From positions 20,626-84,625 of the forward strand of contig JANQHR010000049.1 of the NCBI GenBank assembly GCA_028282585.1: a DNA stretch of 64,000 bases, written 5' to 3'. How positions within the stretch are numbered: position 1 is the stretch's first letter; each line of letters begins with the position of its first letter. Below, in pieces: positions 1 to 5,998 of this stretch. Origin of the DNA: Bacteroidales bacterium (GTDB taxonomy: Bacteria > Bacteroidota > Bacteroidia > Bacteroidales > UBA12077). The position numbers and the translations under genes were made by a program. Below the pieces are notes generated by a model. That model was not told the DNA's origin. It ran no database searches and was given only the letters and a program-made list of their open reading frames with translations.

Positions 1-1011
1 ATTGTCGGAATAATTTTCAGCGAAGACATTTTTGTATTTTTAAAACTTCCGGAAGAAATTATTCCGCAAGCAAAAGTATATTTCAATATTTTTATTGGTG
101 GTGTTATTGTTTCGTTTGGTTTTAATGGTACTAGTGCGATATTGCGCGGATTAGGCGATTCAAAAACTCCATTATATTTTTTAATTGTATCAACGTTTGC
201 CAATATAGCATTTGATTTATTATTTGTGCTGGTTTTTAAATGGGGAATAGCAGGTGTAGCAATTGCTTCTGTTTTAGCCCAGGGAGGTGCTTTTTTAACA
301 GCAATCATCTACTTGAATCGAAAACATGAAATCATTCAATTTTCTTTAACTAAACTCGTTTTTGATAAGATAATCTTCAAGAAAAGTTTACGAATCGGGC
401 TGCCAACCGGAATACAACAAACTTTTGTTGCTATCGGTATGACTGCCTTAATTGGAATTGTTAACAGATTTGGCACCGATGTAATTGCAGCATACTCTGT
501 TGTTATGCGAATTGGGTCATTGGCAACATTACCTGCAATGAATTTTGCTCAGGCATTAGGAACATTTGTTGGTCAGAATATTGGAGCTCACAAAATGGAA
601 AGAGTGAATACAGGACTTATTGCAACATTAAAAATGTCATCAATCGTATCTTTAGCTGTTTCTGCATTTGTACTTTTAGGTGCAACTTTCTTAATGAACT
701 TATTTACTAACGATACAGAAGTTATTAGAATTGGCAGGGAATATCTTTTAATTGTAGGAGGATTTTATGTTGTATTTTCTGCTATGTTTACCATTTCAGG
801 GGTGATGCGAGGTGCAGGAGACACATTAATTCCAATGTTTTTCTCGTTAATATCGCTTTGGTTTATAAGAATTCCGGGTGCCTGGATTTTATCTGATCAT
901 TTCGGAGAAATTGGAATTTGGTGGTCGATGCCTATAGGATGGCTGGTTGGGCTTATACTTTCATTTGCTTATTATTTAACAGGAAATTGGAAAAAGAAAG
1001 CCATCATTTAA
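1..1011 (+). CDS. MATE family efflux transporter (5' truncated by window edge)
   Basis: Frame is open from base 1 (IVGIIFSEDIF...). Two MATE repeat motifs (LRGLGDSKTP, MRGAGDTLIP), GQNIGA motif, many TM segments. Confidence 0.9.
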   Translation: MVGIIFSEDIFVFLKLPEEIIPQAKVYFNIFIGGVIVSFGFNGTSAILRGLGDSKTPLYFLIVSTFANIAFDLLFVLVFKWGIAGVAIASVLAQGGAFLTAIIYLNRKHEIIQFSLTKLVFDKIIFKKSLRIGLPTGIQQTFVAIGMTALIGIVNRFGTDVIAAYSVVMRIGSLATLPAMNFAQALGTFVGQNIGAHKMERVNTGLIATLKMSSIVSLAVSAFVLLGATFLMNLFTNDTEVIRIGREYLLIVGGFYVVFSAMFTISGVMRGAGDTLIPMFFSLISLWFIRIPGAWILSDHFGEIGIWWSMPIGWLVGLILSFAYYLTGNWKKKAII

Positions 1012-1074
1012 TTTTGAGTATTACTAATTTATTTTATAGTAATTAAGGATATAATACAGCTTTTATTATAAAAC

Positions 1075-1110
1075 AGTAAAGGGAACCAATCGAGCTGATT
1101 AGTCCCCTTT
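1075..1110 (-). terminator. Intrinsic terminator of the minus-strand 1686->1075 unit
   Basis: Minus strand GGGGACTAATC-AGCTC-GATTGGTTCCC followed by TTTACTGTTTT. The two G-U pairs only work on the minus strand. Confidence 0.75.
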
Positions 1111-1686
1111 AACAATAGAAAACTAAAAGTTTTCCATGTACCAGATTACTGTTATTATGGTTGGCACAACAATTAAAGATTAAATCTTTAGTTATTAGCC
1201 CTGAACCTGCTAACCATTCCAACTAAGGATTGGTTTTTTGGTTGTTCGTTGGTTAAACTTTTAAGAAAAACTTCACGAACGAAGTGCCATAATGTAAGCC
1301 TATTGATTTGCTCAGTTCTTAATTGCTTATACATTGGGGTCTCCCTTGCGGAATTCCTTTTATGCATAATGTACTTAAGTTCTTTGCTTAATCTTTGTAA
1401 ACCTTCACATGTAATCCGAAGATTATTTAAAGGTTTCAGCAATATTTTCAAAGTCATGAACGATCGCTCGTCTATTTTGTAATTATTGCTGCTTACAGCT
1501 CAATCTGTTAAAGAACGCTAGGCGCTTTTTTGAGACTGATCGAACCTCTTGGAACAAGTCTTTAAGATTCAAACTTCGGCTCTTGGGGTAAGCAATTTTA
1601 AAAATTGTACGATCAGCTAAAAATACAACTAAGTACCTTTCTCCTCTCCCTACCTTTCCGAGCAACCTTTTATCTCTCACCTGGTA
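1075..1686 (-). ncRNA. Candidate large structured non-coding RNA (~600 nt)
   Basis: Bounded by a TATATTTG promoter and a terminator. The 5' end TACCAGGT (1686-1679) pairs with ATCTGGTA (1146-1139). Two UUCG and two GNRA hairpins plus several long-range helices; no credible ORF. Confidence 0.65.
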
Positions 1687-1689
1687 GAA

Positions 1690-1697
1690 CAAATATA
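1690..1697 (-). promoter_or_regulatory. Bacteroidota primary-sigma -7 element
   Basis: TATATTTG matches TAnnTTTG and sits a few nt upstream of the predicted RNA 5' helix. Confidence 0.65.
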
Positions 1698-1997
1698 CGA
1701 ACAGGTAGAATTATACTAAAATTTTTTCGCCTGTTTTAGTTAACTTCTTATCAACCAATGTTTTCAACAATTGTTAATTACTCTATAACGTTTGTCGTGC
1801 TTAGGTTTTAAACCAGTATTAAGTTCAATATTTGAGGTTATTAACAATATAGATATTTATTCAACACGACGATAAATTATTAATTTGTAAAATAATTTTA
1901 TTTAAGTTCTTTACGAAAAAATCTATTCAGATTAATAGTTAAATGTTATTAGAAATACAAATTATTCCTTGACCCCTTAACTATATAACTTATTTAT

Positions 1998-2005
1998 TAC
2001 CTTTG
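1998..2005 (+). promoter_or_regulatory. Bacteroidota -7 promoter element for yicC-gmk-nadD
   Basis: TACCTTTG about 30 nt upstream of the ATG at 2037. Confidence 0.6.
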
Positions 2006-2036
2006 CCCTATAAATTCAATTATAGGAAATAATAAT

Positions 2037-2909
2037 ATGATAAAATCTATGACCGGCTATGGAAAAGCCGAATGTGAATTAAGAGATCGAAAAATTATTG
2101 TTGAAATAAAATCTTTAAATAGTAAAAATCTGGATCTACATACTAAAATCCCCGGAATTTACCGAGAAAAGGAACTTGATATCAGAAATCATATTTCGAA
2201 GAAGTTATTACGTGGTAAAGTAGAGTTTGTATTGTATTATGAAGTTTCAGATGAAAATAAGGCGACCACTATAAACTCGGGTGTAATTAAAAATTATGTA
2301 AATCAATTAAAAGAAATTGCCACAGAATTAAATCTTCAATCGGAACAGTTATTACAAATGGCTATTCGATTACCCGATACCTTGAATACTGAAAAAGAAG
2401 AAATAGATGAAAATGAGTGGAAAATTGTCATTTCTACTATTGAAACTGCTCTTGACCAACTGGATAGTTTTAGAACACAAGAGGGTAAATATCTAAAAGA
2501 TGATATAGAACAAAGAATAAAAGCTATAGAAGAAAGGAAAAATGAGATCACTCCTTTTGAACTTAATAGGACCGAAAAAATAAAATCCAAACTAAAAGAA
2601 GGCTTAAACAAATCCTTTGATGAAAAAGAATACGATAAAAACAGGTTTGAACAAGAATTGATATATTATCTAGAAAAACTTGACATTACAGAAGAAAAAG
2701 TTCGATTAACAAATCATTGCAACTATTTCTTGGAAATGCTAAATGAACCTGAATCAAATGGCAAAAAGCTAGGTTTTATAAGCCAAGAAATTGGTCGTGA
2801 AATAAATACAATCGGATCAAAAGCTAACGATTCAGATATTCAAAAACTTGTTGTTTTAATGAAAGATGAATTGGAGAAAATTAAAGAGCAAATGCTTAAT
2901 ATTCTTTAA
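2037..2909 (+). CDS. yicC: YicC/YloC family endoribonuclease
   Basis: N-terminal SMTGYG; C-terminal KLDITEE..RL..H, GKKLGFISQEIGREINTIGSK; typical position upstream of gmk. Confidence 0.93.
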   Translation: MIKSMTGYGKAECELRDRKIIVEIKSLNSKNLDLHTKIPGIYREKELDIRNHISKKLLRGKVEFVLYYEVSDENKATTINSGVIKNYVNQLKEIATELNLQSEQLLQMAIRLPDTLNTEKEEIDENEWKIVISTIETALDQLDSFRTQEGKYLKDDIEQRIKAIEERKNEITPFELNRTEKIKSKLKEGLNKSFDEKEYDKNRFEQELIYYLEKLDITEEKVRLTNHCNYFLEMLNEPESNGKKLGFISQEIGREINTIGSKANDSDIQKLVVLMKDELEKIKEQMLNIL

Positions 2910-2911
2910 TT

Positions 2912-3478
2912 ATGGAAGGTAAATTATTCATATTTTCAGCCCCTTCCGGTTCTGGAAAAACTACCATAGTCCAAAATCTTCTCAAAAAAGATTTAAACCT
3001 TGAATTTTCAATTTCTGCAACTAGTCGACCAAGAAGAAAAAACGAAGTTGATGAAAAGGATTATTATTTTCTAACTACAGATAATTTTAAAGCTAAAATT
3101 GAGAAAGACGAATTTGTTGAATGGGAGGAAGTTTATGAGAATCGATTTTATGGAACTTTAAAAACTGAGGTAGAACGCATTTGGTCGCAAGGAAAACATG
3201 TTATTTTTGATGTTGATGTGATTGGCGGTCTTAATATAAAAAATAAGTTTCTAAATAGAGCCTTATCAATATTTATAATGCCACCAAGTATGGAAGAGCT
3301 GGAAAAAAGACTTATTCTTAGATCAACTGACAGTAACGAGGATATTGAAACCAGACTAGACAAAGCCAATGAGGAGTTAAGTTATGCCGACAGATTTGAT
3401 GTTATTATAATTAACGACAAACTTGAAAAAGCAATTAAAAAAGCTGAAACCACAATCAAAAAATTCATAACTAGTTAA
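2912..3478 (+). CDS. gmk: Guanylate kinase
   Basis: P-loop APSGSGKTT, SISATSRPRR, DYYF, YGT motifs. Confidence 0.96.
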   Translation: MEGKLFIFSAPSGSGKTTIVQNLLKKDLNLEFSISATSRPRRKNEVDEKDYYFLTTDNFKAKIEKDEFVEWEEVYENRFYGTLKTEVERIWSQGKHVIFDVDVIGGLNIKNKFLNRALSIFIMPPSMEELEKRLILRSTDSNEDIETRLDKANEELSYADRFDVIIINDKLEKAIKKAETTIKKFITS

Positions 3479-3480
3479 AA

Positions 3481-4053
3481 ATGAGAGTTGGATTATACTT
3501 TGGTTCATTTAATCCTATTCATATCGGTCATTTAGCCATTGCAAATTACATGGTTGAGTATAGTGACATGGATGAAGTCTGGTTAGTAATAAGTCCACAA
3601 AATCCTTTAAAGAAGAAAAGTACACTGCTAAATGAATATGATCGATTAAGGATGGTCGAATTAGCTTTACAAGATGATTTAAGAATAAAGCCTTGTAATA
3701 TTGAGTTCAGATTACCAAAACCGTCTTATACTATTGATACATTAACTTATTTGCGCGAAAGAAATCCTAAAGTTGATTTTATTTTGATCGCTGGCACTGA
3801 TAATTTTCAATCATTCCATAAATGGAAAAATTACGAAGAAATATTGAAGCAATATCAACTATATATATATCCCCGACCCGGCTCTGATTTAGGTGAATAT
3901 AGAGATCATAGCGGTATTAAGTTAATTAATGCACCTTTAATGGAAATTTCTTCGAGTTTTATTCGAGATGCAATTAAAAACAATAAGGATGTACGTTACT
4001 TTTTACCAAAAGAAGTTTATAGCTATATTGAAAAAATGAATCTTTACAAATAA
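3481..4053 (+). CDS. nadD: Nicotinate-nucleotide adenylyltransferase
   Basis: GSFNPIHIGH (HxGH), SYTIDTL, ISSSFIR motifs. Confidence 0.96.
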   Translation: MRVGLYFGSFNPIHIGHLAIANYMVEYSDMDEVWLVISPQNPLKKKSTLLNEYDRLRMVELALQDDLRIKPCNIEFRLPKPSYTIDTLTYLRERNPKVDFILIAGTDNFQSFHKWKNYEEILKQYQLYIYPRPGSDLGEYRDHSGIKLINAPLMEISSSFIRDAIKNNKDVRYFLPKEVYSYIEKMNLYK

Positions 4054-5096
4054 TGGGGTTACTTGTATTATATTTTTTAATTGCAGTAATTGTATCTTTT
4101 ATTTGCTCTATAATGGAAGCATCGCTTTTAAGCGTAACTCCAACATTTTTAGCTGGAAAAATAAGCGAGGGAAAAAACTTTGCTAAATCTTTGAAAAAAC
4201 TAAAAGAAAAAATTGACACTCCATTAGCAGCAATATTAACTATTAACACTTTTGCAAATACAGTTGGAGCTGTAGGTGTTGGTGTGCAAGCACAAAAGTT
4301 GTGGGGAAACGAATATTTATCTATAGTATCGGGTACATTAACTGTTTCAATACTTATATTTTCAGAAATTATTCCAAAAACTGTTGGTGCAAGTTATTGG
4401 AAAAATATTACTCCTGTTATTCCATATTTTTTAAGCGCAATGATCTATTCTCCGTTTTATCCTATAATTATTTTAGCAAGATTTATAACTAAAGCGCTTA
4501 AAAAGGATGAACATCAGGATGTCTTGAGTCGTTCTGAATTCCATGCCATGGCAGAAATTAGTGTAAAAGAAGGTATTTTTAAAAAAGAAGAATCTAAGAT
4601 TCTTATGAATCTAATGGTATTCAATAAAATTGACGTAAAAGCCATTTTAACCCCAAGGACTGTTGTTTTTACTGCAAAGCAAACAGAAACCGTTAAAGAT
4701 TTTATTCAAAGTAACGATAAAATCAGGTTCTCCAGAATTCCCATTTGCAATAAAGATATAGAGAATATTACAGGTTATGTCCTAAAAGATGATATCATGC
4801 AGTATATGATTGAAAAGAAGCATGATAAAAAACTGGAAAGTTTACGAAGAGAAATAAAAGTTGTTAACGAGCAAATGCCGATAATTAGATTATTTTATAA
4901 ATTAATTGAAGACAAAGAACATATTGCAATGGTTGTGGGTGAATATGGAGAAATGGTCGGTATTGTCACTATGGAAGATATTATTGAAACCTTATTGGGA
5001 ACCGAAATTATGGATGAATTCGATAATGTTGCTGATATGCAGGAGTTAGCAAAAAAAGTTTGGGAACGTAAATCTCGCAGATTAAGTCTTAAATAA
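4053..5096 (+). CDS. CNNM/DUF21-CBS domain membrane protein (CorC/HlyC-like)
   Basis: N-terminal TM region with SEIIPK, TPR, FSRIP and GIVTMEDIIETLLG CBS-pair motifs. Start overlaps the nadD stop (TAATG). Confidence 0.9.
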   Translation: MGLLVLYFLIAVIVSFICSIMEASLLSVTPTFLAGKISEGKNFAKSLKKLKEKIDTPLAAILTINTFANTVGAVGVGVQAQKLWGNEYLSIVSGTLTVSILIFSEIIPKTVGASYWKNITPVIPYFLSAMIYSPFYPIIILARFITKALKKDEHQDVLSRSEFHAMAEISVKEGIFKKEESKILMNLMVFNKIDVKAILTPRTVVFTAKQTETVKDFIQSNDKIRFSRIPICNKDIENITGYVLKDDIMQYMIEKKHDKKLESLRREIKVVNEQMPIIRLFYKLIEDKEHIAMVVGEYGEMVGIVTMEDIIETLLGTEIMDEFDNVADMQELAKKVWERKSRRLSLK

Positions 5097-5126: not shown

Positions 5127-5419
5127 GCTTCATCTCTTGATCTTACGAATCATTCTATCTTACAATAACTTAAAATAAATTAATCAATCATCAACCTTAT
5201 CAACTTATTTTCTAGATTAAGAGATGTTCAACTACAACAGCAAGATATTAAATATTTTTAACCCCAACCACCAATATTTTAAATAATCACCTCACTGTTA
5301 AAATCCAAATAACAAAAAGAAATCTTAATTGGATAGAATAATCTTACCATTACTCTCTTTTCGAGATATTTAAACAATATAGTTATTTAAATGTTCAATC
5401 TTAAATAAACTTTAAATTT

Positions 5420-5998
5420 ATGAAACTAAATATTGCAATTATCTATGGATCTGTTAGATCTGACAGACAGGGAGTTAGATCAGTTAATTTCTTTTTGAAA
5501 AAATTATCGGAAAGAGGTGTGGATACCGAATTTATAGATCCTATTAAATTTCCTCTTCCATTACTCGATAAAATGTATAAAGAGTATAATCCCGAGAAGG
5601 CTCCTGTTAATATGAGAAAGATCTCAGAGATTTTAACTAAAGCAGATGGGTTTTTAATAATTACCGGAGAATACAATCATAGTATTCCTTCAGCTTTGAA
5701 AAACCTGCTAGATCATTTTCAAGGGGAGTATTTTTTTAAACCAAGTGCAATTGTTTCATATTCCGCAGGTAATTATGCAGGAGTAAGATCTGCGGTACAC
5801 TTAAGAGCTATTTTAGGAGAACTGGGAACACCGAGTATATCATCCATGTTCCCAATCGCACAAATTCAAAAGGCATTTGATAATGATGGTAATGCCCTTA
5901 ATGATATTTATGAAAAAAGATCAAAAAGATTTTTAGATGAGCTTATTTGGTATACACAGGCTCTAAAAAAAGCAAGAGAAAAAGGCGTTCCTTATTAA
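5420..5998 (+). CDS. NADPH-dependent FMN reductase family protein
   Basis: GSVRSDR, GEYNHSIPSALKNLLD, KPSAIVSYSAG motifs. Confidence 0.9.
   Translation: MKLNIAIIYGSVRSDRQGVRSVNFFLKKLSERGVDTEFIDPIKFPLPLLDKMYKEYNPEKAPVNMRKISEILTKADGFLIITGEYNHSIPSALKNLLDHFQGEYFFKPSAIVSYSAGNYAGVRSAVHLRAILGELGTPSISSMFPIAQIQKAFDNDGNALNDIYEKRSKRFLDELIWYTQALKKAREKGVPY

Follow-up and report, generated by a model that had tools for sequence, protein, structure and literature searches.

A candidate new family of large structured RNAs in Bacteroidia with a conserved closing module and an upstream operator

Large, elaborately structured RNAs are rare in bacteria. They include the rRNAs, RNase P RNA, tmRNA, group I and group II introns, and the OLE, GOLLD, ROOL and raiA RNAs; those known either have a fundamental function or are an open puzzle. 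OLE RNA (ornate, large, extremophilic) of the Firmicutes is about 600 nucleotides (nt) long and has a constant gene neighbourhood that includes the gene of its protein partner. As far as is known, it acts within a ribonucleoprotein and not through base-pairing with mRNA. GOLLD and ROOL are often found in phages and prophages, on plasmids, or beside tRNA genes. RNase P RNA and the group I and II introns have a conserved core and variable peripheral domains. In Y RNAs and box C/D RNAs, proteins bind a module made of the paired termini and the internal loop next to them, and the interior varies. Here we analyse a candidate large RNA gene located between a transporter gene and yicC in a stretch of 64,000 nt from a Bacteroidales bacterium (contig JANQHR010000049.1, positions 20,626 to 84,625), below called the window, together with its homologues from other genomes and metagenomes.

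The locus very probably encodes a real stand-alone structured non-coding RNA of a new family. The sequence-only reading of the window, an annotation made without database searches, had suggested a stand-alone large non-coding RNA, possibly of a new class. This suggestion is borne out by the absence of matches in Rfam, by strong covariation among homologues, by the lack of conservation of the short open reading frames (ORFs), and by a contig from an RNA library. We rate the RNA as a new class, absent from Rfam 15. In the overall explanation that we prefer, to which we assign a probability of roughly 0.6, it is the product of a stand-alone gene of about 615 nt, represents a new family of Bacteroidia, is regulated through an upstream operator, and acts in trans as a scaffold.

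The gene occupies a 1025-nt spacer (1012-2036) that separates the 3' end of a MATE-type transporter gene from the start of yicC-gmk-nadD. On the minus strand, the spacer contains the box TATATTTG, the sequence A-CCAGGU (1685-1679), a hairpin-rich segment of about 600 nt, a 15-bp hairpin (1111-1077) and a run of U residues, in this order. The box conforms to TAnnTTTG, which we take to be the Bacteroidetes promoter type. It had been proposed as the -7 element, and all homologues inspected have a box of this type in the corresponding position. The window copy has a weak -33 element. The proposed terminator was recovered as well: the hairpin at 1111-1077 with its U run is the sole terminator-like site in the spacer, and the conservation of its stem extends to the sequence, beyond mere pairing. 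The ends of the gene are predicted, the 5' end being placed at the conserved A 1685 and the 3' end within the U run past the terminator. The gene is single-copy in its own genome, as judged by BLAST.

The assignment of the RNA to the minus strand, made already from the sequence, agrees with the pairing statistics. On this strand 89.8% of 7273 cells pair, 708 of them as G-U, versus 83.6% on the plus strand. Compared with shuffled sequence, the minimum free energy of the fold has z = -7.0 on the minus strand and z = -4.2 on the plus strand. The minus strand is favoured by the G-U pairs, the promoter and the terminator.

Covariation was assessed on RNAalifold consensus structures of 11, 17 and 71 sequences. 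It is strong, and it rose as sequences were added. The 11 genus sequences produce 165 pairs, of which 45 have compensatory changes. After the addition of six sequences from four other families of the order, the 17 sequences have 85 consensus pairs, and 59 of these are changed on both sides. In this set 94.5% of cells are paired, versus 25-51% when the 3' partners are slid by one to three columns; the slid controls have both-side changes in 17-31 pairs. None of 500 column shuffles matched any observed covariation measure. The 71 sequences, 41-86% identical to the window copy, have 104 consensus pairs in 21 helices. Seventy-five pairs are compensatory, meaning that they show two or more pair types that differ in both bases and that each occur in two or more sequences.

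Eight helices had been drawn in the sequence-only reading; five of them stand, and three are better explained by other pairings. The closing helix P1, CCAGGU 1684-1679 with AUCUGG 1146-1141, has four of six pairs changed on both sides, and 98% of its cells are paired (17 sequences). Among 87 members of the family collected on two conserved strands, the P1 6-mers are complementary at all six positions in 74 and at five in 12, so that a complementary P1 is present in 86 of the 87, and 35 distinct strand pairs occur. In the 17 sequences, the hairpin at 1425-1412 with a UUCG loop has five pairs, four of them compensatory, and the hairpin at 1353-1342 with a GCAA loop has three, two of them compensatory. 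The hairpin at 1472-1459 has the changes CG to UA and GC to AU in two of the 11 genus sequences. The terminator hairpin described above completes the retained set.

The drawn local hairpin ACUUCG-UUCG-UGAAGU (1285-1270) is replaced by two long-range pairings, which covariation supports in its stead. ACUUC 1285-1281 pairs with GAAGU 1577-1573 (five pairs, three compensatory, 95% paired), and GUUC 1280-1277 pairs with GAAC 1247-1244 (four pairs, all compensatory, 97.9% paired), both in the 71-sequence set. In members with CUGC in this place, the long-range partner turns to GCAG and the local GAAG remains unchanged. The helix GCUGAUCG/CGAUCAGU (1617-1610 with 1542-1535) is absent from all consensus structures. 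Its 3' strand goes into a local hairpin that covaries better (pair 174/202 is GC in six sequences, AU in four and GU in one). Finally, UGGCAC/GUGCCA (1289-1284 with 1167-1162) was not retained, as 1167-1163 pairs with 1200-1196 instead. This helix, P7, has five pairs, three of them compensatory; its pair 555/589 is CG in seven and UA in four of the 11 genus sequences.

The resulting anatomy is given in Table 1. Helices P2-P7 abut, with linkers of 0-3 nt, so that a tight multi-helix junction is closed by the ends of the RNA. The central domain is shrunk to a 5-nt loop in the shortest close relatives, where P4 is a plain hairpin.

Table 1. Predicted features of the RNA gene and its upstream region, with positions in the window
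Feature	Position	Strand	Evidence and remarks
RNA gene	1070..1685	minus	~615 nt; full-length homologues, covariation model, terminator
Distal operator-like half-site ATTGTTAATAAC	1837..1848	minus	forms inverted repeat I6 together with the proximal operator; ~160 nt before the start of the RNA
Operator array: palindrome core TTAACAATTGTTGA (1777-1764) and two GTTNAT repeats ~11 nt apart	1734..1781	minus	weight matrix
A-tract and -33 region of the putative promoter	1715..1729	minus	consensus of 43 upstream regions: A-run, then TTG
-7 promoter box TATATTTG, TAnnTTTG type	1690..1697	minus	sequence; position kept in all aligned homologues
P1, 5' strand CCAGGU	1679..1684	minus	pairs with 1141-1146; covariation
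J1/2, purine-rich GAGAGAUAAAA (family consensus gAGcGAUAAAAg)	1668..1678	minus	invariant or nearly so in 87 members
P2, 5' strand GGU	1665..1667	minus	pairs with 1159-1161; 3 pairs, all compensatory, 99.5% paired, 71 sequences
5' domain: P3 (GCUC 1663-1660 / GAGC 1582-1579) around three hairpins	1579..1663	minus	helices of the 71- and 17-sequence sets
Variable central domain, 287 nt, closed by P4 (1577-1573/1285-1281)	1286..1572	minus	minimal-form alignment, lengths, P4 covariation
P5 stem-loop (1280-1277/1247-1244 and inner hairpin)	1244..1280	minus	covariation, 71 sequences
P6 stem-loop, loop CCUUAGUUGG conserved in the genus	1204..1243	minus	12 pairs, all compensatory, 71 sequences
P7 (1200-1196/1167-1163) around a variable hairpin	1163..1200	minus	covariation
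J2/1 strand AUAAUAACAGUA (family consensus aUAAUAAC.GUA)	1147..1158	minus	invariant block; search pattern that recovers the family
P1, 3' strand AUCUGG	1141..1146	minus	covariation with 1679-1684
P8 hairpin, in the interval between P1 and the terminator	1111..1140	minus	11 pairs, 10 compensatory, 71 sequences
Terminator hairpin and U-rich tail	1067..1110	minus	GGGA/UCCC stem kept throughout the family
Stretch covered by one 479-nt metatranscriptome contig	1198..1675	not shown	run X2; word depth 50.1, 4 differing letters, one 1-nt gap

The RNA does not belong to any described family that we could compare it with. A cmscan search with 4227 families of Rfam 15 at gathering thresholds produced no match in the whole 64-kb window, which therefore contains no tRNA, riboswitch or other known RNA. 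The models included RNase P, tmRNA, signal recognition particle RNA, 6S, OLE, GOLLD, ROOL, HEARO, raiA and the group I and II introns, as well as the Bacteroidales, Bacteroides and Flavo motifs. At the same thresholds no match was found in the loci of nine relatives, and only a neighbouring tRNA was found in 20 metagenome loci. Hits at permissive thresholds (E <= 10 in the spacer, E <= 5 in two short members) were rejected; they are short and chance-like, and belong to unrelated small RNA, small nucleolar RNA and microRNA models. The earlier statement that signatures of RNase P RNA and tmRNA are lacking was also correct. The genome has a separate match to RNase P RNA (RF00010, contig C12, 196.3 bits), which has no nhmmer similarity to the family, and one to tmRNA (RF00023, contig C124, 159.8 bits), for which nhmmer gives E = 13 and no meaningful similarity. 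No description of such an RNA was found in the literature searched, although subscription-only papers and supplementary motif lists might hold one.

The three short ORFs of the locus (89, 69 and 37 codons) are open in none of ten genus relatives. The corresponding regions contain one to eight stop codons, differ in length by numbers not divisible by three, and have lost start codons. Variable columns are distributed evenly over the codon positions (54/50/56 and 28/31/28).

A BLAST search of 61 related genomes found full-length matches with 72-86% identity in 10 of the 36 other genomes of the genus; matches in G044 and G058 were disregarded, being only 33 and 30 nt long. More distant members were collected with a 24-nt pattern in the IUPAC code for the J2/1-P1 block and with two covariance models, R1 of the 5' domain, trained on the genus only, and R2 of the 3' core. 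The pattern retrieved at least 120 metagenome stretches. Among the 120 matches listed, 106 match the family profile (nhmmer), and 58 are full length, 54 of them non-redundant, with lengths of 331-808 nt. The 87 members collected on the two conserved strands are 283-824 nt long (median 535). All have in common P1, the two A-rich strands, P8, and a terminator with the GGGA/UCCC stem. The interior is replaced wholesale and ranges from a few tens or about 100 up to about 650 nt. Distant members of 283-320 nt have interiors unrelated in sequence, and share the closing module alone. The window copy has all elements of our working definition of the family, namely the TAnnTTTG box, the 6-bp P1, gAGcGAUAAAAg, UAAUAAC.GUA, P8, and the terminator with the GGGA/UCCC stem.

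In the genus, R1 and R2 identify the same carriers, 11 of 37 genomes, and three weak R2 hits are false. No copy was found by R1 in 19 genomes of the other three genera of the family. In the order sample, R2 has matches in 25 of 151 genomes, and 21 weak loci were inspected for motifs. Both the conserved 5' strand and the operator, offset from it by 99-102 nt, are present in 14 of them, and one of the two in five; two loci with neither were counted as false. The 19 accepted loci all show a terminator-like hairpin and a U run after the match, as read by eye. The carriers in this sample amount to about 23 of 151 genomes and represent 22 families, including that of the window. The count obtained with R1, 4 of 149 genomes, is an underestimate, as it missed divergent members that R2 and the 3' pattern recovered later. 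A class-wide sample has 4 carriers among 147 genomes of other orders, besides one false hit. An exact-pattern scan of 400 genomes over the phylum, with a strict pattern, had no hits. The R2 false positives (L317, L318, L332-L334, L337) lack the 5' strand, the operator and the terminator altogether.

Several genomes have two copies. These are dispersed in G088, G132, G170 and G181, and tandem in one of the genomes of other orders (G885). The tandem copies, L335 and L340 (G885:C84:3587-3704 and 5308-5425), are 1.7 kb apart, and their 3' cores are identical where compared.

The adjacency to yicC is coincidental, as the sequence-only reading had allowed: the site between the MATE and yicC genes holds only 6 of the 11 genus copies. 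Other copies in the genus lie between the genes of alkaline phosphatase and a DUF4097 protein, or between a PAS histidine kinase gene and carB. Two near relatives, with YicC and MATE proteins 76-81% identical to those of the window, have MATE-yicC spacers of 113 and 128 nt and no RNA. In all, the family occurs in at least six genomic contexts. The commonest setting over 86 loci is rpsD-rpoA-rplQ-eno, the RNA, and a gene of the UbiD family: enolase precedes the RNA in 18 loci, and UbiD follows it on the same strand in 24, at a median distance of 109 nt. The genes of a pfkB kinase and parA follow in nine. A tRNA gene is found beside the RNA in one of 20 metagenome loci scanned (L210:1195-1278, ~165 nt downstream). 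Since the long-range order rpsD-rpoA-rplQ-eno-RNA-ubiD is retained in many lineages, the RNA gene seems to be chromosomal and vertically inherited, and to have been lost often and moved occasionally.

Two further observations concern the MATE-yicC site. In one yicC relative (L026) the distance between the two genes is ~1450 nt; the spacer contains no copy of the family by nhmmer, and is filled by something else. The last ~60 nt before yicC (1975-2036), including TTACCTTTGCCCTATAAAT, are conserved with or without the RNA gene (L002, L004, L005, L023, L024), and presumably contain the promoter and leader of yicC.

The upstream regions of the RNA genes contain a candidate operator, which, like the strong variation of the family in interior and length, had gone unnoticed in the sequence-only reading. 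In six of eight contexts, a motif resembling TGTTAATAAC was seen by eye at a distance similar to that of the distal half-site (Table 1). A palindrome of the type TTAACAATTGTTAA, lying within the longer symmetric consensus GTTATtAACAATTGTTaATAAC, is present upstream of the RNA in all of these contexts. With at most two mismatches allowed, the palindrome is found in 43 of the 53 metagenome members for which 200 nt of upstream sequence are available, versus 8 of 1060 in the shuffled control. The proximal copy always begins 90-92 nt before the profile start in these members. The consensus of the 43 sites consists of the palindrome, two GTTNAT repeats with a spacing of ~11 nt, an A-run, TTG, and the TAnnTTTG box. 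The half-sites vary independently, without compensation, which fits a protein-binding DNA site rather than an RNA hairpin. We consider it likely that transcription of the RNA is regulated by a DNA-binding factor at this operator.

A weight matrix derived from the 43 metagenome sites scores 42.0 bits at the array of the window, the top value in the 4.9-Mb genome, and only two other loci exceed 14 bits. One of them (C78:14284-14342, 29.9 bits) is located 90-100 nt before the gene of a 443-aa exported protein that has no Pfam family above threshold. The other (C77:23150-23196, 21.9 and 23.6 bits) is the spacer between the divergent genes dnaB and ispE. One to six palindromes per genome were found in all 37 genus genomes, whether or not they carry the RNA, and 0-3 with the reversed-pattern control. 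The 30 operator loci listed for the genus comprise 16 at the exported-protein gene, 11 at dnaB/ispE and three elsewhere. We infer that the RNA is driven by a general regulator with a very small regulon. A reading of the half-sites as DnaA boxes, judged by the canonical 9-mer, found no support and was dropped, since neither form is clustered near dnaA or in any other place. The accessible part of the literature searched has no description of the operator sequence.

A near-identical sequence is present in run X2, which is on record as metatranscriptomic and belongs to a study other than that of the probable source sample. The run contains 48% of the sampled words of the stretch. Its contigs were compared with positions 1-4200 of the window; they do not show strand, ends or level. 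The MATE, yicC, gmk and nadD genes and the segments 1070-1197 and 1676-1685 have no cover in this run; as only assembled contigs are involved, this lack of cover was not taken as a sign of differential expression or of where the transcript ends.

In the probable source DNA run, contigs break within the terminator hairpin, one ending at 1116 and the next starting at 1099; the inverted repeat has probably disturbed the assembly here. Contigs of other organisms in this run partly overlap 2799-2961, where yicC ends and gmk begins. They have loose ends and seem to represent related strains or species from the sample.

Taken together, these data suggest the following scheme. The RNA would be transcribed from its own promoter, consisting of the -33 region and the -7 TAnnTTTG box. 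A dimeric or multimeric transcription factor presumably binds the palindromic operator array at its fixed distance, and may switch the RNA together with dnaB and the exported-protein operon in the genus. Transcription would stop at the sequence-conserved intrinsic terminator. In the predicted fold, P1 and P2 join the 5' and 3' ends and close the P3-P7 junction, with the two strictly conserved A-rich strands lying between P1 and P2. The RNA may then work in trans, as a ribonucleoprotein scaffold or as a regulator that sequesters a protein. The closing module (P1, the internal loop J1/2-J2/1, P8 and the terminator hairpin) would be the protein-binding handle, and the variable interior could provide stability or lineage-specific contacts. 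The scaffold or sequestering mechanism itself is tentative, at rather less than even odds. It is suggested by the confinement of conservation to the terminal internal loop and the sequence of the terminator stem, the body being replaceable, and by the fact that no protein gene is a constant neighbour.

Several points weigh against this scheme. The conserved junction core and the strictly conserved unpaired purines would be equally compatible with a ribozyme or with an assembly made of RNA only. With carriers making up 11 of 37 genomes in the genus, ~23 of 151 in the sample of the order and 4 of 147 in the rest of the class, the distribution is patchy; the role of the RNA is dispensable or replaceable. 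No neighbour recurs across 13 genome contexts, save a multi-copy cluster that includes sensor kinases. The evidence from RNA amounts to a single assembled contig of one study, and RNA libraries may contain DNA. The alignments were mostly made by MAFFT and the consensus structures derived by RNAalifold from the same alignments, so that the slid controls somewhat favour the chosen structure. Finally, it is conceivable that a general nucleoid protein recognises the operator.

One alternative is a large RNA that assembles with itself without protein, similar to the homo-oligomeric assemblies reported for GOLLD, ROOL and OLE. The size and ornateness of the RNA, its tight multi-helix junction and numerous loops of the UUCG and GNRA types, the sporadic distribution, and the presence of one to two copies per genome are consistent with it. 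However, there is no match in sequence or structure to these three families and no confirmed copy in the phage or plasmid collections, and the interior that would build the assembly is unconserved, the 283-320-nt members sharing the closing module alone. We regard self-assembly as rather unlikely. Similarly, the conserved core with variable periphery inserted at fixed points, and the strictly conserved unpaired nucleotides adjoining the closing helix, could indicate a new large ribozyme with the junction and the two invariant A-rich strands as its active site and with variable peripheral domains. However, no substrate, processing site or associated mobile or processing gene is evident, no Rfam ribozyme model matches, and flanking exons are lacking, the gene being intergenic with its own promoter and terminator. 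A ribozyme of this kind is distinctly unlikely. It is also unlikely, if slightly less so, that the RNA is a new large functional class, either a ribozyme or an RNA-centred machine, in which the invariant closing module would be the active or recognition site, and the operator shared with dnaB would tie expression to the control of replication or growth.

The remaining explanations fit the locus less well. Insertion of a mobile or phage-derived RNA element beside yicC would account for the presence and absence of the RNA at the MATE-yicC site, for the multiple contexts and for the second copies in some genomes. However, no integrase, transposase or phage genes were found within about 7 kb in 13 contexts, no target-site duplications or convincing terminal repeats flank the RNA unit, and long-range synteny is kept in many lineages. 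A blastn search of plasmid and phage collections had no match. In viral contigs a first pattern had no hits, and the only hit of a second one, at the end of a 2.1-kb contig, was rejected as a non-member, the region of the RNA body being a 605-codon ORF. A mobile origin is therefore very unlikely. The UbiD-family gene that follows on the same strand in 24 of the 86 loci might suggest a cis-acting leader, or a giant element resembling a riboswitch, acting on a neighbouring gene (yicC here, ubiD elsewhere). This is largely refuted by the gene orientations, as the RNA of the window is transcribed away from yicC and towards the MATE gene, and in other contexts the downstream gene is different or convergent. 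Moreover, a strong terminator is conserved in every member aligned or inspected, and we hold cis regulation to be highly improbable. Lastly, the three ORFs are open in the window genome and might encode one or more small proteins, the structure being incidental. Given that none is open in the ten relatives, that there is no excess of changes in third positions, and that compensatory pair changes are pervasive, this has practically no credence.

A conserved operator at a fixed distance is a rare experimental handle for a large RNA. It could lead to the regulator and to the condition that induces it, and also to the genes regulated along with the RNA, dnaB and that of the exported protein; thus the question of function becomes directly testable. 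The family is widespread: in the sample of the order it occurs in roughly one in seven species, and it extends to further orders of the class and to more than 100 metagenome contigs. It is also unusually modular, with an invariant closing module around a variable interior, and its short members, of about 285 nt, lend themselves well to structure determination.

Among the known systems, OLE RNA is similar in size, and both RNAs are chromosomal, stand-alone and highly structured, with many conserved unpaired nucleotides. However, the new RNA has no match to the OLE model of Rfam and comes from a different phylum, its interior is unconserved, and in place of a constant neighbourhood its recurring neighbours belong to one housekeeping synteny block (enolase, UbiD, rpoA, L17, S4). 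The likeness to Y RNAs and box C/D RNAs is an architectural analogy only: the new RNA is several times larger, its conserved strands do not resemble Ro-binding or C/D motifs, and no gene of a Ro-like or fibrillarin-like protein is linked to it. Bacterial type A RNase P RNA is analogous in that paired ends close a multi-helix core with variable peripheral helices, and in the length of the shortest members, 300-400 nt. In contrast to it, the new RNA occurs in a minority of genomes, and the genome of the window has a separate RNase P RNA. With GOLLD and ROOL it shares large size, ornateness, sporadic distribution, the lack of a known function and, sometimes, more than one copy per genome. However, it matches neither model and was not found in the phage and plasmid collections; its 13 contexts are free of phage genes, a tRNA is adjacent in one of 20 loci, and it has a dedicated conserved operator.

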